Source: a virus (Duplodnaviria; Heunggongvirae; Uroviricota; Caudoviricetes). From it: a stretch of DNA of 64,000 nt. How positions within the stretch are numbered: position 1 is the stretch's first letter; every line of letters starts with the position of its first letter. Under the pieces are notes generated by a model. That model ran no database searches. It was not told where the DNA came from and worked only from the letters and a program-made list of their open reading frames with translations. The position numbers were made by a program, and so were the translations under genes. Positions 7,038-54,300 of the stretch are shown one piece after another. The stretch is taken from positions 104,076 to 168,075 of the IMG/VR virus record IMGVR_UViG_3300014208_000030; one strand, written 5' to 3'.

Positions 7038-8849
7038 TCAGTATCCCACAGCCTCTTCAAAAGTGCAACCAAAATTATTCCATGACTGTATCTCCAATCG
7101 CATGGTATCCAGCCGCTCAAAATTTGCCATAATATATTCCATATCAGACTCAAAAAATGGTGTAATCTCACCAGTGGTTTCACAGACAGTATATGGCATG
7201 TGATTTCGCTTCTCCCAATTCTTTCCTTTCAATGTCGGGCGAAAATTTGTATAATGATTAAGTGCAAGCACTTGCTCTATAGTCGTCGCGCAAGATACCG
7301 GAAAATAATGATCATAATGCCAGTCTCCTTGATTGTGCCAACCAATACCATCAGTGAATTGACTCTCAATAAACTCATAAAATACTTCCATAGAGCAGCC
7401 CAATATGGCTTCCGTCTTTTCTGTTTTTGGGTGTCCCGTTCGTCTGATACCGGAACTTATTAGTGATCGAACTCGTGTGGTGAACATAGCAACCGGATCA
7501 GATCGTCGTCGCTGGCGCTCTCTAGCATACTTGCGTTTCCTTGCTTCTGGTGATAGGTTTTTATTATTTTCTCTGGCAGTTTCCTTAGCCTCCTGTCGCT
7601 TCTTATCGGCATGCTCGGCGAGTTCATCTGGAGTCATTCCGAGTAGTGGGTTTCTGCAAATTGGACATTTGCCTCCGGCAATATGTGATGCTGGCATCTG
7701 CTCGAACTCTCCATGTACTTTACATACGATAATGACTTTAGCTGTCGCTTTGATTACCACAGACTTCGAGTAGTCATATAACTCTCCATGTTGTGCTGTG
7801 GCTCGCTTGATGAACTCGCCTTGGCTCATCGTCCGTGATGCTAGGGCACACTTTGGGCAGTTTGATCCGGATGAGTGTGCGGAAGCGGTTTGGTTAAACT
7901 CACCGTGTATTTTGCATATGATGGTAATCTGCTGCCCAATAGCTACGTAATCTACTTTTGAGTAATCGTACCGATCGCCATGCGTCAGTTGCGATCGCCT
8001 AATAAACTCTTCACATGCTATTGTCTGTAGCGACATTGAGCAAGCCGCACAACCCTTACCTCGGATATGCGCATTTGCTCGTTGACTGAACTCACCATGA
8101 TCCGGACAAATTATTATTACGTTGGCCTGAGTGTGTTTGTAGTCTACTTTAGAATAATCATATCGGTCGCCGTGCACCTCCTTTGAGCGTGCAATGAAAT
8201 CTTCGTGTGAGAGTTTATTTGGCGGCTCGATCCCAGCGCCGATCCGGCTACCTTCCTTGGCGCACTCGCTACACCCAGCACCTTTGGTGTGGTTTGATGG
8301 TCTCTGCGAAAATACACCATGCGTTTTGCATATGATCTTCACCGGTGTATTGGCATCTACATACACAACATTAGAATAATCGTATCGATCGCCATGCTTT
8401 TTGGTCACTCTCTTAATGAATTCTTCGGTTGATATTGGCTGCACTCTCTTGCAATTTTCTCTTGCGCACTTGCTACACCCAGAACTCTTTATGTGCCCAT
8501 ACATAAGCTGCGAAAAGGCCCCATGCACTTTGCATATAATGGTTACTGGCGTTTTAGCGTCAACGTAATCAACTTGCGAGTAATCGAAGCGATCACCATG
8601 TACGGCAATGGCCTTCTGTACCATAGTTTCCGTCTTCTGCTTCGGTTGTTTCGGCGTGGGTGTCTTCTGTGGCACCTTCGGTACATATCTATAATACCCA
8701 GCAACCTTTTCGCTATTATTTGCGATCCATTCGGTACTATAGGCTTTGGCGCATGTTTTGCACTTATTAGAAATGCCACTTTTCATAGATGGCTGTTTAT
8801 AATACTCACCCAATGACTTCTCAATACCGCATGCTTTACATTTCTTCAT
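7038..8849 (-). CDS. HNH endonuclease with six tandem ~47-aa Cys/His repeat modules (start moved to MKKCKACG)
   Basis: C-terminal DWHYDHYFPVS...NHYTNFRPTLKGKNWEKRNH = HNH motif; six repeats of F..R...HGDRYDYS.V.Y......V.IICK.HG.F.Q....H..G.GC..C. Confidence 0.75.
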   Translation of the reverse strand: MKKCKACGIEKSLGEYYKQPSMKSGISNKCKTCAKAYSTEWIANNSEKVAGYYRYVPKVPQKTPTPKQPKQKTETMVQKAIAVHGDRFDYSQVDYVDAKTPVTIICKVHGAFSQLMYGHIKSSGCSKCARENCKRVQPISTEEFIKRVTKKHGDRYDYSNVVYVDANTPVKIICKTHGVFSQRPSNHTKGAGCSECAKEGSRIGAGIEPPNKLSHEDFIARSKEVHGDRYDYSKVDYKHTQANVIIICPDHGEFSQRANAHIRGKGCAACSMSLQTIACEEFIRRSQLTHGDRYDYSKVDYVAIGQQITIICKIHGEFNQTASAHSSGSNCPKCALASRTMSQGEFIKRATAQHGELYDYSKSVVIKATAKVIIVCKVHGEFEQMPASHIAGGKCPICRNPLLGMTPDELAEHADKKRQEAKETARENNKNLSPEARKRKYARERQRRRSDPVAMFTTRVRSLISSGIRRTGHPKTEKTEAILGCSMEVFYEFIESQFTDGIGWHNQGDWHYDHYFPVSCATTIEQVLALNHYTNFRPTLKGKNWEKRNHMPYTVCETTGEITPFFESDMEYIMANFERLDTMRLEIQSWNNFGCTFEEAVGY

Positions 8850-8891
8850 AATTTCTATTGTTATTTTAAAACAAGACTTCCGCCACATTTA

Positions 8892-25661: not shown

Positions 25662-27593
25662 ATGCCTATTTCTGCCCACGAACGCCACCTGATGAACGGT
25701 GGCTTGTTGCGCCCTGTCTCAAAGTCACTTGCAGACACCACAATTCACCCATTCGCAACCCTTGCCGCAAGACCGACTGCGTCGGAATTCGGAGTTGGTC
25801 ATGCGAGTATTGTTACAGCAACATACCGCATCAACTGTTCATCGGATGGCGTTAGCTGGGATAGTCACGGATCGAGTAGCTCAATTGCGGACAGGCCGAG
25901 TGCTGCTGCGCTTGGGAAAGGGAGTTGGCAGGATGGAGCGAATATTTATAGCTGCGATGGAGTAGGCTATGCATTAGTTGGTAGTGCAGACCCATCTACT
26001 TTTACAAATATTTTAGTAAATGGTGATAGCACATCAGTTAGGAATATTTTGGACGGTTGGTGGAAAACATCGGGCGGAGGAACGATAGCGATCAATGTCA
26101 CGGTAGGTGATATTCAGCAGTCATGTCACGCTGATTTAACGGCTGGCTCAGTAGGATATTTAAACTTCCGTGCATCAGACCAGAGCTACCAGTGGAGAGC
26201 GCCAGGCGATGACAGTTACGGCCCGTGGGTTGCTACTGTGCCAAACACGCGAGTAAGACTGGAGTCATCAAGCGCCAATAAATCGTGTTTTGTGGGTGTT
26301 ACTGGACTATCTGCTATTGACGTAAATGCACAAGCCATCACGATATCTTCAGGTTCTCCAACTATAACTGTGTCGGACGATGGCCTTGAGTCTATTCTAA
26401 GATATTTTAGGATTGACTTATCAAATGTCGCGAAACACGGAGTGGGCGGAACAACTATAGCGACTATGCTGCAATCACTGCCCTATATCAACTTAAATTA
26501 CGGCGGAGCTGGGCTAGATATAACCAGTTTAGGAATAAATGATGGCGCCACGACAACCGACGAAGCAACCACAAAATTAGCGCAGTATGCAGCATATATC
26601 GATTCAAGACTTGCGAATGGCAGGACTATTATATGGGTTGGAGTTAAGGGAAGAACTACGGGGGCAGGTGCTGCATATAACGCTTGGGGGACTACATTCC
26701 TAACTTCCTTCAATCTTGAATTTCAGCGTAGATTACATGGATTATTGCTAGAATACGCAAGAAACTTTCCGAGCACATTTAAGTATGTAAATACACTAAG
26801 TGATTTCATGGATGCGGGGTATTTGGATTTCAGACCTAAGGTATCAACCGATAACTGGGTTACTACAGATACTGTACACCAATCAGCACTCGGAGGACAG
26901 TTGATTGCTATTAATGCAGTAACCACAGCTAAGGACATCATTAAATACGGCGATGATTACTCCGATAATAGTAATAATTTACTCGGCACAATGGGTATTT
27001 ATACTGGCACAACAGCCGTAGTATCGGCGGCATCGGGACAGTCGGGTGTATTGCCAACTGGGATAATCGCCAATCCTGGCGGCTCGATTGATGGGACATG
27101 CGTTTATAGTGTAGTGCAAAGATCAACTAATATTGCCAGTTATGCGGCTATAACCGGGAAGAAACAGTTCAATGCTATAAAAATGGTTATGTCAAATGGA
27201 GTTGCAGCGCCACTTGGATTCTATGGGATAAAGGGAAGCACTGCATCGTGGACAGGTACGCTTATTGGGTTAGCAGCTGGAGATTTAATCAGGGTTGGTG
27301 TTTATCTCGACTCACTAAGCGCTGAAGTTCATGGTATTGCATTTAAGTGGAATTATGTTGGTGTAACTCCGCAAAATAATATATATACTCCAGACCAAGG
27401 TGGACAGACTAACTCACCCGGTATGCTGGCCTTCTCTGATACAAGATTATATGTTAGTCCATGGTTTGCTGTTTCTGCTAATTTTCTAGCAACAAATAGT
27501 TTTTTACCTGATTTTAGAGTATATCCAAAAGCTGGTGCAACTGGGGTAGAGTTAAATATTGGGCCTATGTTTATTGAAAAATACCCCGTATAA
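25662..27593 (+). CDS. receptor-binding / tail-fibre-like protein, paralog 1 (643 aa)
   Basis: N-terminal ~90 aa (MPISAHERHLMNGGLLRPVSKSLADTTIHPF...GKGSWQ) near-identical to two other genes; divergent Gly/Thr/Ser-rich C-terminus; late promoter. Confidence 0.65.
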   Translation: MPISAHERHLMNGGLLRPVSKSLADTTIHPFATLAARPTASEFGVGHASIVTATYRINCSSDGVSWDSHGSSSSIADRPSAAALGKGSWQDGANIYSCDGVGYALVGSADPSTFTNILVNGDSTSVRNILDGWWKTSGGGTIAINVTVGDIQQSCHADLTAGSVGYLNFRASDQSYQWRAPGDDSYGPWVATVPNTRVRLESSSANKSCFVGVTGLSAIDVNAQAITISSGSPTITVSDDGLESILRYFRIDLSNVAKHGVGGTTIATMLQSLPYINLNYGGAGLDITSLGINDGATTTDEATTKLAQYAAYIDSRLANGRTIIWVGVKGRTTGAGAAYNAWGTTFLTSFNLEFQRRLHGLLLEYARNFPSTFKYVNTLSDFMDAGYLDFRPKVSTDNWVTTDTVHQSALGGQLIAINAVTTAKDIIKYGDDYSDNSNNLLGTMGIYTGTTAVVSAASGQSGVLPTGIIANPGGSIDGTCVYSVVQRSTNIASYAAITGKKQFNAIKMVMSNGVAAPLGFYGIKGSTASWTGTLIGLAAGDLIRVGVYLDSLSAEVHGIAFKWNYVGVTPQNNIYTPDQGGQTNSPGMLAFSDTRLYVSPWFAVSANFLATNSFLPDFRVYPKAGATGVELNIGPMFIEKYPV

Positions 27594-27724: not shown

Positions 27725-30160
27725 CTATTTTAAATTGTAGCTTATGACTTTATAATCGAATTGATCTTTTGCATAATATCCTACTCGTTTCTCGAAATGG
27801 TCTAGGGTATGATTTTTGTAAGATTTATACGACATATCGTCCGCCAAATCGAACAGGTTACAAACATATTTCCCATTCCCCTTTCGCAGACCACGCCCAA
27901 CTGACTGCAAAACTTTTATCTTGCTCTTGTATGGTGATGCAAAAATAATATTGTCAATCCGCTTGATCGAAACACCGGTAGAAAATGTGCCATATGATGC
28001 AACTATCGTACAGTCATCTGTAGTCTCGGCAATCTGCCTAACAGCATCTCTGGACTCAACATCAACCTTGCCATGTATAAAGTGACAGTTACCAGCATCT
28101 TTTAGCAAATTGTAGATAGGCAGACCCTGCTTCCCGACGAATGTGAACAGTATTAGCGTATTACCTTTCAGAGAGTTCGCCAATCCGGCAATGAAGGCAT
28201 TTCTGCGCTCACTGGTGCATAGATAATCCATTTCTTGAGCATACGTAGCCTTGCTCCGAGCCATTGCCTTAGCAACTTCCTCGCGGTGCTTAATCAGGAT
28301 GCAGCTGATCTTCAGATTAGCGGCCTGACCGTTATCAATCAGTTCTCTGGTAGTTATAGTCTTAAATGCTTTCCCAAACAAACCCTCGATGACCAACCGG
28401 TTACATTTGCTGTCCTGCAAACTTCCGGTGAACCCGACTCGATAGGCGACATTGTGAGCCCTCTCCATAATATCGGTAATTGACTTAGATTTTGCAGTGT
28501 GGCAATTGCCTACTACAACAACAAAACCTTTTCTACGGACAATAATATTCCCAGACGGCACAGTAACGCAATGCACATTACCAGAATATTGGACGCGCTC
28601 TTTTTGCATCCCTTGCGTCCCTATGATATTGGTCTTCCGGATATATAATCTATGCACATCGGAAAACTTATCGCTCCTGCTATCTATCTGAATAGTTTTT
28701 CTTGCTATATATCCCGCTAGTACAGCAACGGTCTGATAAAAATCAACCGAGCACTCGGATGTGTTCGAATAGTAGTATCGATTCTCGCTGGATATGCTGC
28801 CATCCCAAATAACCATATACTCTATGATTTCTTTCGCCGTTTCGCTAGATAGTGTTGATACGTCAAAAAATGTAGATACATCCTTTGTCGCATAATCAAT
28901 ATTATATATACTAAACCGACGTTTTTCTTTGGTTTTCCCGTATGCTGGTATACTCTTCAGCTCATTATATGAAAACCCACCCTCAGCCATCAGTGCTAGG
29001 AACTCAGTTATTTTTCTTTCTTTAGAAAACTTAAACTGTAATACTTGTTTTCCGCCATCCCGACCAACAATACATCCGTCTGCTTGGAGTGCAATCATAA
29101 GCTTTTGTTTTGGTGTAAGTGGTCCAGAATCGCCTACGGCAAGCCCAGCCCCATATAGATTACATAAGGCATTAAAATTAACTTCTGCCGCAGTTACTTT
29201 TTTGTCAACATAGCCGTGCTTCTGTGTTCGCCTAATTAGCATATCATGGTTTGGAGTTACTAAAAGGTCTATTCTACTATCACTACTTATATGTACTAGC
29301 TCACCATCATAGTGCTTAGTGATATATCTAAGTGGCTTAACGAATGATATATTACCACAATCGTACTGAGCAACATCCGCAACCTCGCTCAATTCATCGA
29401 ATCGAACAAATCCTCTGTTTGTCAATATTTCTGTATCTGGAGAGAAGCACTCATCCTGAACAATCATATCGAACTGCTCATAATATGAGATTGGCATTTT
29501 TGCCATCGATTGGTAGGTAGTGAAGGTCAGTTGCTTATCGGTCTGCTTCTCCTGCCCAGAGTAGATCATGTGGCTTCTACCCTCAACATCCCATCCGCTT
29601 ACGCTAGAATAGTCAATGAAATCGGACTTCATTTGCGCCACCAGACCGACGGTTGGGAATATCAATAATACACGCTTCACTTCACCGATAGCTATCAGAT
29701 ATCTGATTGTGCTAAAGATAATCAGAGATTTCCCCGACGAAGTGGGGCTCTCGATGGTCGCCCTACGGTTGTCTAGAATATGTTTTATGGCGTCGACTTG
29801 GTAGTCATATACTGTGATAGGGTTTCCGGCAGAGTGCAACCGAAGAACATCGGCAATGTATTTTTCGATGATGGCTCTATCGTTGTCCACGACAGGATGT
29901 ACATCCTCATCATACTCTACTGTATAGCCAGCCTGCGCAGCGAATTCGAGAATGTGATAGAACAGGCCAGCATAAATGTTGCGAGTACCGGCGTTGAGGA
30001 GCCTGATTGTGCCATTCCACAACCCATGCTTATATGCCGGTGTAAACTTTGCACCTTCAACATCAAACGTGAAATGCGCAGCCATTTCGACAATAACACA
30101 TTTCTCGGCATCAATGTGCACATATACTTCGTTAAGTTTTCGAATTCGGATATCAGCCAT
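27725..30160 (-). CDS. uvsW: UvsW-like DExH (SF2) DNA helicase interrupted by an in-frame intein
   Basis: Walker A SPTSSGKS; extein blocks recalled to match T4 UvsW (KCNRLVIEGLFGKAFKTITTRELIDNGQAANLKI, TIVASYGTFSTGVSIKRI, VLQSVGRGLRK); motif II reads IVQDE|C...N|CHTAKS. Confidence 0.9.
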   Translation of the reverse strand: MADIRIRKLNEVYVHIDAEKCVIVEMAAHFTFDVEGAKFTPAYKHGLWNGTIRLLNAGTRNIYAGLFYHILEFAAQAGYTVEYDEDVHPVVDNDRAIIEKYIADVLRLHSAGNPITVYDYQVDAIKHILDNRRATIESPTSSGKSLIIFSTIRYLIAIGEVKRVLLIFPTVGLVAQMKSDFIDYSSVSGWDVEGRSHMIYSGQEKQTDKQLTFTTYQSMAKMPISYYEQFDMIVQDECFSPDTEILTNRGFVRFDELSEVADVAQYDCGNISFVKPLRYITKHYDGELVHISSDSRIDLLVTPNHDMLIRRTQKHGYVDKKVTAAEVNFNALCNLYGAGLAVGDSGPLTPKQKLMIALQADGCIVGRDGGKQVLQFKFSKERKITEFLALMAEGGFSYNELKSIPAYGKTKEKRRFSIYNIDYATKDVSTFFDVSTLSSETAKEIIEYMVIWDGSISSENRYYYSNTSECSVDFYQTVAVLAGYIARKTIQIDSRSDKFSDVHRLYIRKTNIIGTQGMQKERVQYSGNVHCVTVPSGNIIVRRKGFVVVVGNCHTAKSKSITDIMERAHNVAYRVGFTGSLQDSKCNRLVIEGLFGKAFKTITTRELIDNGQAANLKISCILIKHREEVAKAMARSKATYAQEMDYLCTSERRNAFIAGLANSLKGNTLILFTFVGKQGLPIYNLLKDAGNCHFIHGKVDVESRDAVRQIAETTDDCTIVASYGTFSTGVSIKRIDNIIFASPYKSKIKVLQSVGRGLRKGNGKYVCNLFDLADDMSYKSYKNHTLDHFEKRVGYYAKDQFDYKVISYNLK
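28505..29449 (-). mobile_element. intein (~315 aa) with LAGLIDADG-like homing endonuclease domain, inserted in helicase motif II (DE^CH)
   Basis: starts CFSPDTEILTNRGFV, ends ...GFVVVVGN followed by extein Cys; internal LYGAGLAVGDSG LAGLIDADG-like motif; extein junction rebuilds DECH. Confidence 0.8.
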
Positions 30161-47850: not shown

Positions 47851-49653
47851 ATGCAATCAACAGCAATAAACCAAAAAGACGGCTATAAAATTGGTCACAA
47901 ACCATTTTACCCAGACCTGACAGAAGAAATTTATGGCAATCTTACTGCACGGTCGGGTCGACTGTCAAATATCAAGGGCACCAAAGGCGTCTATTTTGTC
48001 GGTTTACAGGCTCTATTAGCCGAATATTTTGTCAAAGAATGGAATGAAACATTTTTCCAGCGACCAAAAGAAGAAGTACTCGAAAAATATCAACGTCGGG
48101 TATCGAATTTCTTTGGGTATGAGATCGATATTTCGCACATTGCCGCACTACATGATTTGGGTTTCTTGCCAATACAGGTGAAGGCGATCCCAGAAGGCTC
48201 TTTCGTTCCATATGGTGTCCCAATGGTCACCTACAAAAACACGGTCAAGAACTTTGGCTGGGTTGCGCAGATGTGTGAAACCGTATTGTCATCAGAAACA
48301 TGGCAGGGGATCACATCGGCAACGACCTATATGGAGTTCAAAAAACTCTTTACCAAATTTGCCCTGAAAACAGGCACCCATTTGGCGTTTGTCCCGTACC
48401 AAGGTCATGACTTCAGTTTCCGAGGAATGGCTGGCAGACACGCTGCAGCGAAGTCTGGTTATGCAATATTAGCCTGTGGTAGCTTCGGAACCGATTGTTT
48501 ACCGGCAATTGACTTGGCGGAAGACTATTATTATGCAGATGTTACAAAAGAGATTGTCGGGCTGTCAATTACGGGAACTGAACACTCGGTAGCATCGGCA
48601 AACATCATCACTATTGAGGAGGCTTTCCGCAAAACTGGTGAGTGGGGTGGGCTTAGGTTTGAAGACCTTATTGATGATAGTTCGGATACAGATTATAAAA
48701 ACATCGCCGAAACAGCATTTATCCATCGTGTCATATCACAGGTTGCCCCAAGCGGCAAGGTAGCGTTAGTGTGTGACACATATAATTTTTGGAACGTAGT
48801 GACAAACAGCTTGCCAATACTCAAGGGAGAAATTATGGCAAGAGATGGTCAGGTGGTTATTCGCCCGGATTCTGGCGACCCAGTTCGCATGATCTGCGGT
48901 GGCGATTACGAAGTTATACGCCATGCTGATAATATAGAACAAGCAAAGCGGTATGCCTTAGATTCATTGGAAGAGTATGTTCGTGAAGATGCCGGTCATG
49001 GCGAATGTGGAATGATAGATTACGGTGACATCTTCAACTGGAATGGAAAATACTACCGAGCTGAGGCCGAATTTGAGTGGAACCGGTACGGCAAACAGTA
49101 CTACTTCATTGACGGCAGCAAGTTGCTATCATTTGAAGAAGTTGAGCTAAGTGCTGACCAGAAAGGTCTGATCGAATGTTTGTGGGAAACTTTTGGCGGC
49201 ACATTGACCGAAACAGGCCACAGAATGCTCGATTCACATATAGGTGCTATCTACGGTGATTCAATCACATATGAACGCGCCACTGAGATTCTGACGCGAC
49301 TAGAGGCCAAAAACTTTGCCAGTGGTAACATAGTTCTAGGCTTGGGCTCCTATTTGTTTCAGCTAGTGACGCGGGACACGCACGGTATGGCAATTAAAGG
49401 CACCCACATTGTAGTGGATGGCAAAGACGTACCGATTTTCAAAGACCCAATCACTGATGACGGTACTAAAAAGTCCGCAAAAGGATATATGGTCGTGGAG
49501 ACCGATGAGAATGGCGAATATTGCATGCGCGACATGGTATCCAGAAAAGAAGAGAAATATGGTGCATTACGAGTTGTATTCCGTGATGGCATACTGTATA
49601 ATGAAACAACCTTAGCAGAAACAAGAAAATTAACCGAGTTGAAACTATCATGA
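47851..49653 (+). CDS. nicotinamide phosphoribosyltransferase (Nampt/NadV)-like protein; candidate Namat
   Basis: N-terminal DGYKIGHKPFYP resembles the Nampt DSYK.tHy block; length 600 aa; immediately follows the Prs-like gene with 2-nt spacing. Confidence 0.65.
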   Translation: MQSTAINQKDGYKIGHKPFYPDLTEEIYGNLTARSGRLSNIKGTKGVYFVGLQALLAEYFVKEWNETFFQRPKEEVLEKYQRRVSNFFGYEIDISHIAALHDLGFLPIQVKAIPEGSFVPYGVPMVTYKNTVKNFGWVAQMCETVLSSETWQGITSATTYMEFKKLFTKFALKTGTHLAFVPYQGHDFSFRGMAGRHAAAKSGYAILACGSFGTDCLPAIDLAEDYYYADVTKEIVGLSITGTEHSVASANIITIEEAFRKTGEWGGLRFEDLIDDSSDTDYKNIAETAFIHRVISQVAPSGKVALVCDTYNFWNVVTNSLPILKGEIMARDGQVVIRPDSGDPVRMICGGDYEVIRHADNIEQAKRYALDSLEEYVREDAGHGECGMIDYGDIFNWNGKYYRAEAEFEWNRYGKQYYFIDGSKLLSFEEVELSADQKGLIECLWETFGGTLTETGHRMLDSHIGAIYGDSITYERATEILTRLEAKNFASGNIVLGLGSYLFQLVTRDTHGMAIKGTHIVVDGKDVPIFKDPITDDGTKKSAKGYMVVETDENGEYCMRDMVSRKEEKYGALRVVFRDGILYNETTLAETRKLTELKLS

Positions 49654-50606: not shown

Positions 50607-50680
50607 GCGGGTATAGCAAAACGGTTATGCAACTGGCTTCCACCCAGTTCACGGGAGTTCGACCCTCCCTACCCGCTCCA
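50607..50680 (+). tRNA. tRNA-Gly (anticodon TCC)
   Basis: hand-folded cloverleaf: acceptor gcgggta/tacccgc, anticodon stem actgg/ccagt loop cTTCCAc, T-arm gggag-ttcgacc-ctccc, 3' CCA encoded. Confidence 0.8.
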
Positions 50681-50702
50681 AATAACATAGGGAAGCATAA
50701 TA

Positions 50703-50936
50703 ATGGCAGTAGAAGTGAGAGTATTTGAACCTGATCCGGCACACATCTGCATTAGGAATGCTGGGAAGTGGTCACTGAGTATGAATCCAAATATGTTTGG
50801 TCGCGTAACTCATATTAGATATTTGAATGAGTTTGAGTGTGACCTCATCAATGGAGCAATAAAAGCCGCGCAGCGTGCAATGGATATAGCATCTGGAGTA
50901 CCTTCTGAAGCTGATCCTAACCGGATAGATAATTAA
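50703..50936 (+). CDS. hypothetical small protein between tRNA genes (77 aa)
   Basis: ORF only. Confidence 0.3.
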   Translation: MAVEVRVFEPDPAHICIRNAGKWSLSMNPNMFGRVTHIRYLNEFECDLINGAIKAAQRAMDIASGVPSEADPNRIDN

Positions 50937-50945
50937 AAAGTTTTT

Positions 50946-51021
50946 GCGCCAGTAGCTCAATGGTAGAGCGTTCCCCTCATAAGGGATTGGTTTTTGGTTC
51001 GAATCCAAACTCGGCGCACCA
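50946..51021 (+). tRNA. tRNA-Met/Ile2-like (anticodon CAT), acceptor stem with one bulged C
   Basis: D-arm gctc-aatggta-gagc, anticodon loop cuCAUaa, T-arm tttgg-ttcgaat-ccaaa, CCA encoded; acceptor gcgccag pairs with ct(c)ggcgc only if one C is bulged. Confidence 0.55.
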
Positions 51022-51027
51022 AATAAT

Positions 51028-51101
51028 AAGTCATTAGCTCAACGATAGAGCGGCTAGGTGCACTAGTAGATGGTGGGTTTAACTCCCATCATGGCTTGCC
51101 A
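51028..51101 (+). tRNA. tRNA-like element (anticodon arm unresolved)
   Basis: acceptor aagtcat/atggctt + g + CCA, D-arm gctc-aacgata-gagc, T-arm-like gtggg-tttaact-cccat; central region ctaggtgcactag is palindromic and gives no canonical 7-nt loop. Confidence 0.35.
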
Positions 51102-51426
51102 AATTAAGACTAAGTAGAAGCCTTTCCCTACGCACTAAGGAGAGGCAACAAATAATACGATTAGCTTGTCAGACTTAGAACTGTATATTCAACTCTCGAA
51201 CATGGTTGCTTCTAGTCGTATTTTTTGTTAGTGAATGCGTAGGCTGATACGCTGAGATTTGTCTCTCGTCGCAATCCATTTAATTGTGGCTCTAGCAACA
51301 GACATTAACTGAAATGATAAGCATGGGATCAGTACATGCCACCAACTTCAAATACCGTAAGAGGATAGTATTGTGTCTAAATTTAAAATAAGAGGACGGT
51401 GCAATTTTCATTAGTATATTTAACTA

Positions 51427-51960
51427 ATGGAGGTAGCAATGTTAATCGTAACACAAAGAAGCTTCACAACAAAGCACGATCAGGTTATTGGGTATTTTCA
51501 GGACATTCGTGCCATCTACGACCACTTTAGTGGTTTGTTTGGCAAATATGGTTTAGAGAACAGATTCTCCCATAACCAATTTGAGGTCGTAGTAACCGGT
51601 AGATACTGGTTATCTTGGCGAGAAGATATTACCGGCACCGAGCATGCAATGGTTATTACTAACCGGCAGGGTATCCGGTATAGCAAAGAGTTTGTTGCTG
51701 GGATATTTGCAAAGTACCGTAAAACGAAGTTCCAGTGGGGCTGGATACGTGGTACGAAAAGAAATTACCGGTGCTGCTATCGTAGTATAAGAACAACCCA
51801 AGAAATAAGACTTTCAGTGGGTGTTCTGAAAGAAGAAGGTGAACCAGTTTGGCGAACATCTAGAAATTATCATAACTTACCCAACAAATGGGATGAGATA
51901 CAGCATTTGGATGTTTGCAACCGGAACTGGAAGCGGTTTAGAAAAACACAATATAAATAG
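51427..51960 (+). CDS. hypothetical protein (177 aa)
   Basis: ORF; SD ggagg. Confidence 0.45.
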   Translation: MEVAMLIVTQRSFTTKHDQVIGYFQDIRAIYDHFSGLFGKYGLENRFSHNQFEVVVTGRYWLSWREDITGTEHAMVITNRQGIRYSKEFVAGIFAKYRKTKFQWGWIRGTKRNYRCCYRSIRTTQEIRLSVGVLKEEGEPVWRTSRNYHNLPNKWDEIQHLDVCNRNWKRFRKTQYK

Positions 51961-51979
51961 TATATAATGAGGCAGTGAA

Positions 51980-52168
51980 ATGAAAACCCTTTTCGTATGG
52001 ATGAAGTATTCTTGGCAAATCGTGGGACAATCCCTCGCAACTAAGAAGCATCGCAGACCAATAGTAAATGAGGCAGGATTCGTGGCACCGATTATCGTAC
52101 CACTTGGGTATATTGGTGTTATTTTGCAGATAGTTGTTGCGGCATATGTATTAAAAGTTATTTTTTGA
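51980..52168 (+). CDS. hypothetical small membrane protein (62 aa)
   Basis: hydrophobic C-terminus. Confidence 0.35.
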   Translation: MKTLFVWMKYSWQIVGQSLATKKHRRPIVNEAGFVAPIIVPLGYIGVILQIVVAAYVLKVIF

Positions 52169-52177
52169 AAATAAAGC

Positions 52178-52205
52178 TTGACAAGATGTAAAAAGTGTGT
52201 ATAAT
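52178..52205 (+). promoter_or_regulatory. sigma70 promoter aaagcTTGACA-16-TATAAT
   Basis: perfect hexamers upstream of tRNA-Ser. Confidence 0.65.
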
Positions 52206-52283
52206 GGTTGAATAGTTTGCATCACATATAAAGACGGCAATCTTTGTGGTGCGAGCCTTAGTTAAAAAATGATTTGATACGTG

Positions 52284-52291
52284 TATAAATA
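52284..52291 (+). promoter_or_regulatory. late promoter TATAAATA upstream of tRNA-Ser
   Basis: gtgTATAAATAaaag 12 nt before tRNA 5' end. Confidence 0.5.
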
Positions 52292-52302
52292 AAAGTAGAT
52301 AT

Positions 52303-52392
52303 GGAAATGTGGCAGAGCGGTTTATTGCACTGGTCTTGAAAACCAGCGGGGCTTAATCGCCTCCCAGAGTTCGAATCTCTGCGTTTCCGCCA
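52303..52392 (+). tRNA. tRNA-Ser (anticodon TGA), long variable arm
   Basis: acceptor ggaaatg/cgtttcc, anticodon stem ctggt/accag loop cuUGAaa, variable arm, T-arm cagag-ttcgaat-ctctg, CCA; similar in layout to E. coli tRNA-Ser. Confidence 0.8.
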
Positions 52393-52450
52393 TACAATGG
52401 CACGGTTTGTCAGTTTCTAGGTCTAAAAATGAGAAACTTCCACGAATAAT

Positions 52451-52525
52451 TGCGGTGTACATCAGAGGTAGATGAACTGGCTCATAACCAGAAAGACGGG
52501 AGTTCGAGTCTCTCCACCGCTACCA
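52451..52525 (+). tRNA. tRNA (anticodon CAT; Met or Ile-lysidine), U1-U72 mismatch
   Basis: acceptor tgcggtg/caccgct, D-arm catc-agaggta-gatg, anticodon loop cuCAUaa, T-arm gggag-ttcgagt-ctctc, CCA encoded. Confidence 0.6.
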
Positions 52526-52544
52526 GTTTTAAAGTAGTAAATTT

Positions 52545-52621
52545 CGGAATGTATTTCAGTCTGGTAGAATGAACCGTTTGGGGCGGTTCGGTCGTGGGTT
52601 CAAATCCCTCCATTCCGACCA
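52545..52621 (+). tRNA. tRNA-Pro (anticodon TGG)
   Basis: acceptor cggaatg/cattccg perfect, anticodon stem aaccg/cggtt loop uuUGGgg (G37), T-arm gtggg-ttcaaat-ccctc, CCA. Confidence 0.75.
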
Positions 52622-52639
52622 AACAAGGGATATCACGCT

Positions 52640-52735
52640 TAGTTACGTGCCATTTGGCATCGCGCACCCAGATATCCCACCAAATAAGTGTTATCACGCC
52701 TATTGCCAAATGGCTCGCGCACCATGATAGCACGA
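52640..52735. repeat. two ~35-bp direct repeats each containing palindrome tgccatttggca / tgccaaatggc + cgcgcac
   Basis: gatatcacgcttagttacgtgccatttggcatcgcgcaccc vs gttatcacgcctattgccaaatggctcgcgcacc. Confidence 0.6.
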
Positions 52736-53042
52736 TTAACACCAGCCATTACTCTTGGGCGTTATAATTAAGAGAGGTCTTAAGCTCATACCAGAATGAG
52801 AATTGGTACATATCGCATACCAGACAAACATCCGTGTAGAGGAGAGGTTACAAAATCGATATCGTGCCTGTATGTGTACGTAAACATCCCACTGGCTAGC
52901 AAATAGGGCTCTTGGGTGAAGCATACTAGACGGAGAATAAACAGCCTAGATGGGGGAGCGTTGGTGACGTTTAGCCCATCACTCTTATTTTAAAATAAGA
53001 GATAAATATAGCAAAATGAGTGAAGTATTTTCTCCAGCTAAG

Positions 53043-53114
53043 GCACAAGGTGTGCCGCCATCCTGTTAAGATGTGTGAGTTTGGTCCGATTCCAAAAGCT
53101 GGAGAAAATACTTT
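53043..53114 (+). tRNA. tRNA-Asn-like (anticodon GTT) embedded in a 16-bp extended inverted repeat; no CCA
   Basis: acceptor tccagct/agctgga, D-arm ggca-caaggtg-tgcc, anticodon loop cuGUUaa, T-arm tttgg-tccgatt-ccaaa; flanks gaagtattttctccagc / gctggagaaaatactt extend pairing. Confidence 0.5.
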
Positions 53115-53126
53115 ATATACAAAGAG

Positions 53127-54002
53127 TTACGGGTTAATATAATTCTCAACGAGTTTCACTAATTCTGAGTACTCGATACTAGATATTGTTTTCTTTTTAT
53201 TATTTTCTGTGTGCTGCATCAATTCACAATTTAGTGGGTGTGTGATATAAAATGCATCATAGTTATATTTTAGTGCATCATGCACGGATACTCTATGGTC
53301 TCTCGATATCCCATCTGGGTTCCACTTTTGGCCTTTGAAATTATTCGGCGAGAACCACCCGAATTTATCTATTAAGGTCAGATCGAACAGGTCTGGATAG
53401 TGGTACACATTGAATGTAAACTTATATCGTTGCTTTTCTGCTGGTGAATATATGGTAACGCACTTTGTACAGTATTTCGTCGCCCTCCTTTGGGATATGA
53501 TAATGCCACAGTGCTGACATTTGCACATATATAACTTAGAAAATACACCAGATGCGGTTTTGTTAGTTTCTCGGTTTCGTACTGGACTGCGGCGTTGCGC
53601 TACTCGCTTACGTACAGGCTTTGGTAATTTAGCTTTGCGTTCTGGCTTGCTCTTGATTTTGTGTGCAGATTTATGATAGGCCGATACGCTTTTAGATACT
53701 TTATCCTTGTGGGCATCAGTAATAACATAGCCATGTTTTATTCTGTCGGTATTATTAAATGTAGCTGCACATGATGCATTACAAAATTTTCGATTAGAAT
53801 CTAATGGCATATTACAATGAATGCAGTATTTAATATTAGATTGAAATCTAGGAAGCCGATCGACCGATATCTCTTTCTTAGTAATAATACAGCAGCATCT
53901 TAGTTGTGGAAGTTTACCAGCTGATATGCCGTGAATACGAGAATGCCCATTAAGAGAGCGAATTGATGGAAATATTTTACTACAGTGTTCGCATTTGAAC
54001 AT
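53127..54002 (-). CDS. HNH endonuclease with N-terminal C2H2 zinc finger (homing-endonuclease-like) in the tRNA region
   Basis: FKCEHCSKIFPSIRSLNGHSRIH = C2H2; C-terminal GISRDHRVSVHDA...HPLNCELMQHTENNKK = HNH; basic KxK-rich linker. Confidence 0.7.
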   Translation of the reverse strand: MFKCEHCSKIFPSIRSLNGHSRIHGISAGKLPQLRCCCIITKKEISVDRLPRFQSNIKYCIHCNMPLDSNRKFCNASCAATFNNTDRIKHGYVITDAHKDKVSKSVSAYHKSAHKIKSKPERKAKLPKPVRKRVAQRRSPVRNRETNKTASGVFSKLYMCKCQHCGIIISQRRATKYCTKCVTIYSPAEKQRYKFTFNVYHYPDLFDLTLIDKFGWFSPNNFKGQKWNPDGISRDHRVSVHDALKYNYDAFYITHPLNCELMQHTENNKKKTISSIEYSELVKLVENYINP

Positions 54003-54108
54003 TGGATACCCGATATAAATAATATTGTGTAGGACAGTTCAGTTACCCGATACTGAATTGATTAATATTGGTCGTATTAATCTAACTGCATATATTTATA
54101 TAAATATG

Positions 54109-54137
54109 TTGACAATATATCGAATATGGTATATACT
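54109..54137 (+). promoter_or_regulatory. sigma70 promoter TTGACA-17-TATACT (overlapping TATAAATA boxes on both strands at 54095-54106)
   Basis: seen in sequence. Confidence 0.55.
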
Positions 54138-54203
54138 CTTAAAAGTTAACAATATACCGGACAAGCATGCGAAAGCTGCTCAAATCGTTCCGGTTTTTAT
54201 TAT

Positions 54204-54284
54204 TGTCATGTAGCTCAGTGGTAGAGCAGTGGCGTAGTCGCACTACGCTTCCGTACGGTGGGTCAACACCACCCATGACAGCCC
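54204..54284 (+). tRNA. tRNA-like element (perfect acceptor stem tgtcatg/catgaca, canonical D-arm), anticodon arm atypical
   Basis: D-arm gctc-agtggta-gagc; T-arm ggtgg-gtcaaca-ccacc; 29 nt between D- and T-arms form gcgtag-tcgca-ctacgc hairpin; anticodon not assignable by hand. Confidence 0.4.
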
Positions 54285-54300
54285 AATTTAGCGAAATAAC

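Follow-up and report, generated by a model that had tools for sequence, protein, structure and literature searches.

A predicted LAGLIDADG-containing intein in motif II of the UvsW helicase of a metagenomic T4-like phage

What is the 315-residue block that stands inside motif II of a phage UvsW-type helicase, and how would the helicase and the block coexist? The gene in question lies in a 64,000-nt stretch of a Caudoviricetes record (IMGVR_UViG_3300014208_000030, positions 104,076 to 168,075; hereafter the window, whose own numbering is used throughout). It is the uvsW precursor gene, encoding a UvsW-type superfamily 2 (SF2) helicase with one intein, and was recognized from the list of open reading frames (ORFs), Pfam matches, and similarity to T4 UvsW (PDB 2oca) as a single ORF of 811 codons plus a stop codon, without internal stop, at 27725..30160 on the minus strand, to which all features of this gene described below belong. 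The ORF reads "...FDMIVQDE/CFSPDTEILT...(315 aa)...GFVVVVGN/CHTAKSKS", with slashes marking the junctions. Reading and translating the DNA placed the first codon of the insert (Cys, TGC) at 29447-29449 and the last (Asn, AAT) at 28505-28507. The initial annotation had proposed an intein at 28505..29449, and these limits hold to the nucleotide: the insert, precursor residues 238-552, comprises 945 nt or 315 codons, in frame and without a stop.

The 315-residue insert in motif II

The flanks of the insert were assigned by Pfam searches and by alignment to 2oca. The N-extein (residues 1-237; 29450..30160) contains the UvsW_N domain (61.2 bits against a cut-off of 25.3) and a Walker A sequence, SPTSSGKS (29726..29749), that is uninterrupted in the window copy, and it ends in the motif II residues VQDE (29450..29461). 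The C-extein (residues 553-811; 27728..28504) starts with Cys+1 and His, the CH of DECH (28499..28504), and contains the Helicase_C domain of the C-terminal helicase lobe (Pfam, residues 665-761; 27878..28168) as well as a QSVGRGLR sequence (within 27728..28504), which we read as motif VI; ResIII and DEAD also matched the flanks. After removal of the Cys-to-Asn block, the 496-residue product aligned end to end with T4 UvsW (residues 3-495, E value 2.2e-81), and mivqDECHtaksKSI stood opposite mmmnDECHlatgKSI of T4 UvsW without a gap at the junction. This alignment, which the initial annotation had named as a check, bears out its view that the insert sits exactly in the DECH box of UvsW and that its removal restores the motif. 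Judged by these sequence features, the host is a T4 UvsW-like SF2 helicase with a UvsW_N domain and two RecA-like lobes carrying motifs I, II, and VI, whose best UvsW matches among phages are cyanomyovirus proteins (~43% identity). An assembly artefact or chimera is excluded, since four independent assemblies contain an identical protein (P0001): two contigs of 168 kb, one from JGI and one from ENA, and two assemblies of Logan read sets.

The insert by itself gave full-length matches (30-36% identity, E values to 1e-46) inside unrelated phage proteins; the host genes, spread over many phages, encode ribonucleotide reductase (RNR), NAPRT, DNA polymerase, primase, thymidylate synthase, and PhoH. 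Since it also scored 408 bits against the family profile, the insert is not a chance sequence; it matched PHROG 12229 at 3.5e-30, and the NCBIfam model TIGR01445 (intein_Nterm) matched residues 1-71 with a score of 28.3, above the curated cut-off of 24.5. For conservation analysis we took 62 non-identical relatives from a search of 5.8 billion proteins, and all counts out of 62 below refer to this set. Cys1, T10, G13, T65, H68, D124-G125, K146, W215-D216-G217, C294, R305, G314, and N315 were invariant or nearly so (C1, T65, H68, and G314 in 62/62; N315 in 61/62; C294 in 59/62), and the +1 residue was always Cys, Ser, or Thr. The anticipated conservation of the splicing blocks was thus found in part: C1, T65/H68, C294, G314, and N315 are kept in the relatives, and the canonical His residues of blocks F and G are absent.

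An AlphaFold2 model of the intein, built on a 35-sequence alignment, had a predicted local distance difference test score (pLDDT) of 96.8 and a predicted template modelling score (pTM) of 0.93. With secondary structure assigned by DSSP, the model predicts a 146-residue Hint domain, with beta strands at residues 1-105 and 275-315. The Hint N-lobe (residues 1-105; 29135..29449), supported by family conservation, TIGR01445, and a profile match to the intein structure 6zgq (7e-11), contains block A, CFSPDTEILTNRG, with the invariant Cys1 (29411..29449), and block B, RIDLLVTPNHDMLI, with the invariant T65 and H68 and with M70 at position B:12 (29234..29275). The C-lobe (residues ~275-315; 28505..28627), placed by profile alignment and conservation, contains block F, NVHCVTVPSGNIIVRR, with Cys294 at position F:4 and Pro298 (28532..28579; profile alignment to solved inteins), and block G, VVVVGN, ending in Gly314-Asn315 (28505..28522). 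When the predicted model was compared with the PDB using Foldseek, the top matches were intein-endonucleases (TliVMA, 1.3e-15; PI-SceI, 9e-12; PI-PfuI, 1e-10), and matches to intein structures ranged from 1e-15 to 1e-5, including 6zgq with a template modelling score (TM) of 0.73 on the target. The initial assignment of the insert as an intein therefore finds support in Cys1, the TxxH residues (T65, H68), Asn315, Cys+1, the TIGR01445 score, and the predicted Hint fold.

The predicted endonuclease domain occupies intein residues ~110-272 (28634..29122), as indicated by the model, Foldseek, profile alignment, and conservation. In the model it forms two alpha-beta-beta-alpha-beta-beta units, the first with helices 113-124 and 144-157 (last strand 176-184) and the second with helices 202-216 and 232-244 (last strand 265-271). 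Profile alignment to the PDB set "LialqADGs" on "LGYLIADGT" and "elvewDGh" on "AYIVCDGY" of TliVMA, and on the PI-PkoII motifs likewise. Because both are thereby placed on the motifs of solved inteins, the true LAGLIDADG motifs are KLMIALQADG (residues 116-125; 29075..29104) and IIEYMVIWDG (residues 208-217; 28799..28828). Their acidic residues, D124 and D216, sit 92 residues apart, and Asp or Glu is found there in 62/62 and 59/62 relatives, respectively; a conserved Lys, K146 in FSKERKI (29009..29029), is kept in 52/62. Foldseek also linked the domain to the free-standing LAGLIDADG enzymes I-DmoI and I-SceI (3e-5 to 2e-4). The two-unit predicted fold and the motif alignment to TliVMA and PI-PkoII thus agree with the earlier proposal of a LAGLIDADG-type endonuclease. 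Conversely, the segment that had been cited as its motif, LYGAGLAVGDSG (residues 98-109; 29123..29158), turned out to be a variable strand/loop stretch lying where the Hint lobe passes into the endonuclease, with a column conservation of 10-40%, strands at 96-99 and 103-105, and no helix. As in PI-SceI, TliVMA, and PI-PfuI (Foldseek E values 1e-15 to 1e-10), the Hint domain appears to be interrupted by a monomeric two-motif LAGLIDADG homing endonuclease, although these inteins are only 8-14% identical to the window intein, comprise 430-540 rather than 315 residues, and end in His-Asn instead of Gly-Asn. Together, sequence and model identify the insert as a predicted bifunctional intein, a Hint domain enclosing a two-motif LAGLIDADG endonuclease.

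The intein family and its junctions

HMMER searches of 1.84 billion cluster representatives (50%-identity clusters) retrieved 9,711 proteins of this family at E<=1e-30 and 18,127 at E<=1e-10. The top 136 new proteins contained 206 full-length copies, 190 of which end in GN. DE/CH (56 copies), a site in diverse SF2 helicases, together with DE/CQ (3) was by far the commonest junction type, the next commonest being found in 4 copies, a ranking biased by the profile, most of whose source sequences were helicase inteins. DE/C[FY]xxDTEILT was also searched for as a degenerate DNA pattern, one that fixes GAYGAR so that upstream conservation arises partly by construction, and 19 IMG/VR viral contigs were found: 16 had helicase-type junctions (DE/...GN/[CS][HQ]), one locus was truncated before the intein end, and two carried the intein in RNR beta at RDE/xxH. 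Only about 11 nt (GAYGAR/TGYCAY) are shared in the DNA, so that no common homing site can be deduced.

Inteins of the same clade, 31-56% identical to the window copy, were found at DE/C[HQ] of helicases whose exteins were 19-27% identical or unalignable, which indicates that the clade follows the motif and not the gene. The UvsW hosts comprised, besides the window protein, P0002 (extein 76% and intein 56% identical) and P0003 with three IMG/VR contigs (38% and 47%); P0151, P0233, and perhaps P0160 are further UvsW-type hosts. By these comparisons, at least five UvsW lineages carry an intein of this family. Conversely, the nearest UvsW relatives lack it: motif II reads DEVH in P0004, a protein of the same sample with 62% identity, and DECQ in P0008. 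Motif II of 15 intein-less homologues with a recognized motif read DEVH in five, DECH in four, DEAH in four, DECQ in one, and DETH in one. This sporadic host distribution is comparative evidence for mobility. Within the DE/CH clade the endonuclease was as conserved as the splicing domain (46-58% versus 43-53% identity), whereas inteins at other sites (RNR, NAPRT) were 28-32% identical in the endonuclease and 38-47% in the Hint domain; such a pattern is consistent with selection acting on the nuclease and with its adaptation to the target.

Outside helicases, the relatives include inteins of the RNR beta of Tenacibaculum phage PTm1 (35.8% identity), of RNR and NAPRT in Staphylococcus Twort-like phages (Romulus/Remus), of the thymidylate synthase of Corynebacterium phage P1201, and of the TOPRIM primase of cluster A1 mycobacteriophages (Kelley et al. 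2016, PMC5050341). They are homologous over all 315 residues and both domains and begin alike with C[FY]xxDTEILT, and members of the protein set analyzed also end in GN; they differ in host gene and site, and their identity is 25-36%. Among the ~100 phage records listed for relatives of the insert, none was a UvsW. The literature on UvsW and inteins, part of it consulted as abstracts, contained no description of a UvsW intein, and no paper was found on an intein in helicase motif II of a phage. Inteins have been recorded in SNF2/HepA, Ski2, RecG, and UvrD helicases and not in UvsW (Novikova 2016). Phage replication and repair proteins with inteins in their ATPase motifs are already known, as are phage inteins without a penultimate His and the present family, which is abundant at motif II of metagenomic phage helicases. 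The present case adds UvsW to the ATPases of phage replication and repair in which inteins have settled, with the Walker B DE/CH codons as a recurrent landing site.

Some side observations concern the same family. The RNR beta junction RDE/xxH (IMG/VR loci L011 and L020; proteins P0051 and P0070) lies after Asp-Glu and before His, like the helicase DE/CH. Giant precursors (P0111, 2602 residues; P0124, 3308 residues; P0108, P0121, and P0123) contain many profile-matched stretches, up to 10 per protein. The NAPRT gene of the window (600 residues, 47851-49653, plus strand), about 100 residues longer than the PHROG profile, has an intact VVIRPD-SGDPV, the empty form of a site of this family that is filled (IRPD/...GN/SG) in Staphylococcus phage and metagenomic NAPRTs.

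Proposed splicing and homing, and the alternatives

In our preferred account, the 811-residue precursor would be translated with motif II (Walker B, DE/CH) split by 315 residues, and because of this split it should be ATPase-dead, judging from the T4 UvsW structure. Cys1, positioned by T65 and H68, would most likely make the N-S acyl shift, the N-extein would be transferred to Cys+1, which is the C of DECH, and after cyclisation of Asn315 an S-N shift would yield a 496-residue UvsW with a native DECH, the 36-kDa intein being set free. Either this free intein or the precursor would act as an endonuclease (D124, D216, K146) that cuts the motif II DNA of intein-less uvsW genes in co-infecting relatives, and recombinational repair would copy the intein into the cut allele (homing). 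We consider a functional intein with an endonuclease domain to be very probable; the endonuclease activity and the class 1 route are each less certain than the account as a whole.

Several observations weigh against this account. Splicing itself, the endonuclease activity and its target, and the first-attacking Cys (Cys1 or Cys294) are what we infer. The insert scored below the Pfam gathering thresholds for Intein_splicing (18.1 < 35.8), Hint_2 (17.1 < 28.4), and LAGLIDADG_3 (15.2 < 22.5), and the C-terminal intein model TIGR01443 had no match in it. Among the relatives, Intein_splicing was matched by 17/35 (best 4e-10) and LAGLIDADG_3 by 6/35 (best 7.6e-9), both at E<=0.01. As Pfam was sub-threshold and a phmmer search of the PDB with the insert gave a marginal match only, the analysis had to rely on a family profile and a predicted structure. 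The canonical assisting residues Asp F:4, His F:13, and His G:6 are absent, and the family has a penultimate Gly (62/62) and no block F His. GC content at third codon positions was 0.33 in the intein and 0.51/0.47 in the exteins, a difference within the range of other window genes; base composition was rejected as a sign of recent transfer, since 7% of equally long segments in these genes were as low. Finally, no near-identical intein-free allele of the window phage was found in searches of phage records, proteins, and IMG/VR, so that recent homing is not demonstrated.

How the first step would proceed depends on the class of the intein. Profile alignment placed the family sequence VYCVtVp opposite VYDITTE and VYDLSVE of solved inteins, so that Cys294 occupies position 4 of block F, which is Asp in standard inteins and the initiating nucleophile in class 3 inteins (PMC2807308, PMC4031507). 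The family is thus non-canonical, with an invariant Cys1 and TxxH as in class 1 combined with Cys at F:4, in place of Asp or Trp, and a Gly-Asn end. Class 3 inteins lack a nucleophile at position 1 (PMC6195587, PMC7891396, PMC2807308) and are mostly without the block B Thr of TxxH (PMC6195587, PMC7891396). Of their WCT triplet (Trp B:12, Cys F:4, Thr G:5), the window copy has the Cys alone (M70, C294, V313). With Cys1 and TxxH invariant and only one triplet residue present, the class 3 assignment was not adopted and class 1 appears to be the most likely route.

A class 3-type route or a two-cysteine relay, in which Cys294 would attack the N-terminal junction or take the N-extein from Cys1 and form a block F branched thioester before transfer to Cys+1, is conceivable, though we would not expect it. 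It is suggested by Cys F:4 in 59/62 relatives, opposite the Asp that solved inteins have there; by Cys, Thr, or Ser at G:5 in 43/62; and by the best solved match, the AceL NrdHF split intein (6zgq; profile E value 7e-11), a class 3 intein of phage-like origin whose nucleophile is Cys124 at F:4 (Hoffmann et al. 2020, PMC7891396). The residues of AceL NrdHF (Ala1, S65, H68, M70, Cys124, a Pro-Gly kink four residues on, T144, and G145-N146; PMC7891396) correspond to C1, T65, H68, M70, C294, P298, V313, and G314-N315 of the window intein on the same 146-residue Hint scaffold, with the CxxxP kink and the Gly-Asn terminus in common and no His at F:13 or G:6 in either. AceL NrdHF, however, is a proven class 3 intein that starts with Ala1 and resides in the RNR NrdF, and a free-standing GIY-YIG gene separates its naturally split halves; the intein of the window is a contiguous element in UvsW that has Cys1, TxxH, an internal LAGLIDADG domain, and Val instead of Thr at G:5. 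Cys1 is present in 62/62 relatives and in 203/206 full-length copies of the wider scan, the class 1 Thr of TxxH is invariant, and B:12 is Met, Leu, or Phe, never Trp, throughout the family, all of which argues against this alternative, as does the lack of the triplet in the window copy, with Val at G:5.

For either route there are precedents of splicing with Gly at G:6. A phage class 1 intein with a penultimate Gly (Bethlehem RDF) splices well and is slowed by a Gly-to-His change (PMC5050341; Kelley et al. 2016), and AceL NrdHF, which has neither C-terminal His, splices within minutes by the class 3 route and is killed by G145H (PMC7891396). By these two examples the residue constellation of the window intein is splice-competent. 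With Cys1 and TxxH, ~95% Cys at F:4, a Gly-Asn end, and no assisting His, the family might even be a mechanistic bridge between classes 1 and 3 through a Cys1-Cys(F:4)-Cys+1 thioester relay, or might use Cys1 and Cys294 as a redox switch gating a recombination helicase, with class 3 inteins such as AceL NrdHF arising from it by loss of Cys1; this is speculation to which we attach a low probability. With a class 1 N-terminus, the class 3 nucleophile position, and no C-terminal His in thousands of natural sequences, the family is nevertheless a convenient test bed for class interconversion, and compact splicing domains that need no His might be obtained from it. It does not overturn the current understanding of inteins and UvsW.

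With regard to homing, the intein might be splicing-competent and immobile, its endonuclease being kept as a scaffold without cleavage and its inheritance being only vertical. Many inteins carry decayed endonucleases, the LAGLIDADG_3 score of the window copy is sub-threshold, and no intein-free twin genome was found among phage records and IMG/VR. We nevertheless think this rather unlikely, as D124, D216, and K146 are intact and family-conserved, the endonuclease domain models at pLDDT >92 throughout, and its conservation among the DE/CH inteins equals that of the splicing domain. That the insert has no intein function at all, and is a permanently retained domain, part of a dead uvsW pseudogene, or an assembly chimera, is hardly credible despite the sub-threshold Pfam scores, given the nucleophiles in place at both junctions, the predicted Hint fold, the intact Walker A, restored DECH, Helicase_C, and end-to-end T4 UvsW alignment, the four assemblies, and the 811 codons free of stops, and a retained insert would cost helicase function because Walker B is cut between the catalytic Glu and His.

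Other elements at uvsW and in the window

Further mobile elements were found at the same gene or site. PHROGs 16259 (330 residues) and 9690 (306 residues) had matches in the N-terminal and C-terminal portions of the precursor that extended a few residues into the intein, and a junction-spanning query led to Proteus phage PM2 (NC_055727; L026 2431-5163), in which uvsW consists of three ORFs (gp180/181/182). The first piece (327 residues) ends in "...LMNDE/CFDGDTLIK..." and matched Pfam UvsW_N and Intein_splicing (38.2 > 35.8), the middle ORF (291 residues) has a weak TnsA-like nuclease match, and the third piece (306 residues) starts with "MRLKS...VYNLHV...ALAHN/CHLATGKS". The same arrangement was found in Salmonella phage S16 (NC_020416; L028 2865-5591; gp114/gp114.1/gp115), STP4-a, SEA1, CF-SP2, and others. 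Thus uvsW of S16 and PM2 is broken at the same DE/CH by an unrelated split intein of a canonical His-Asn family. The two cases share the host gene, the DE/CH junction, and an associated endonuclease-like mobile ORF; the split intein differs from that of the window in its family, its His-Asn end, its distribution over two genes around the 291-residue ORF, and its lack of a LAGLIDADG domain. The layout resembles the "fractured genes" of Dassa et al. (2009, PMC2677866), a paper that does not include UvsW. A further candidate for a junction-spanning match, Synechococcus phage BUCT-ZZ01, was rejected; its helicase is a contiguous 503-residue gene without an intein. In GenBank, the S16 and PM2 pieces are labelled "DNA helicase" and "hypothetical protein", with no intein annotation; these labels, and the sub-threshold Pfam scores of the window intein, explain why genome annotators miss uvsW inteins.

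In T4 itself, SegE is a free-standing GIY-YIG homing endonuclease targeting uvsW (Edgell et al. 2010, PMC2988022), which makes uvsW a gene that homing elements of T4-like phages are known to target; unlike the window intein, SegE involves no protein splicing and belongs to another nuclease family. A 169.5-kb related contig from the same sample (JGI 3300037810, Ga0376277_0000679) has a GIY-YIG and NUMOD3 gene (L005 4503-5246) directly after an intein-less uvsW (62% identity, DEVH), reminiscent of T4 segE beside uvsW. A second, unrelated intein interrupts Walker A of the metagenomic UvsW proteins P0002 (1167 residues) and P0008 (853 residues) at "SPTS/CHKKGDKV...ITHN/SGKSL"; it matched Pfam Hom_end/Hom_end_hint and LAGLIDADG_3 and has a His-Asn end, and P0002 carries both inteins. 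Three independent kinds of mobile element, namely the contiguous LAGLIDADG intein, the split intein of S16 and PM2, and SegE-type nucleases, target uvsW or its DE/CH, and uvsW, motif II especially, emerges as a hotspot for homing elements.

The source of the window is a large T4-like myovirus of roughly 168 kb, obtained from a metagenome and without a close sequenced relative: none of 50,697 phage records matched the gene in megablast, no phage record covered >=80% of the precursor in tblastn, and an IMG/VR scan for close relatives of the phage found none. Other genes of the window encode an NAD-dependent DNA ligase, an RNA ligase, PRPP synthetase, NAPRT, and baseplate and tail proteins. A 643-residue ORF convergent with uvsW (25662-27593, plus strand) had no Pfam or PHROG match; the homologous position of the related 169.5-kb contig holds a 615-residue GDSL-lipase-like protein. 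A 616-residue ORF (7038-8888, minus strand) contains repeated HNH-endonuclease-family and zinc-finger-like segments, with phrog_559 matched in three stretches, phrog_4605 in five, an endonuclease VII-like N-terminus, and Pfam DUF723 and DUF4379, and may be another mobile nuclease. Seven tRNA genes are clustered at 50607-54285 on the plus strand (Gly-TCC, two Met, Ser-TGA, Pro-TGG, Asn-GTT, and Ala-CGC).

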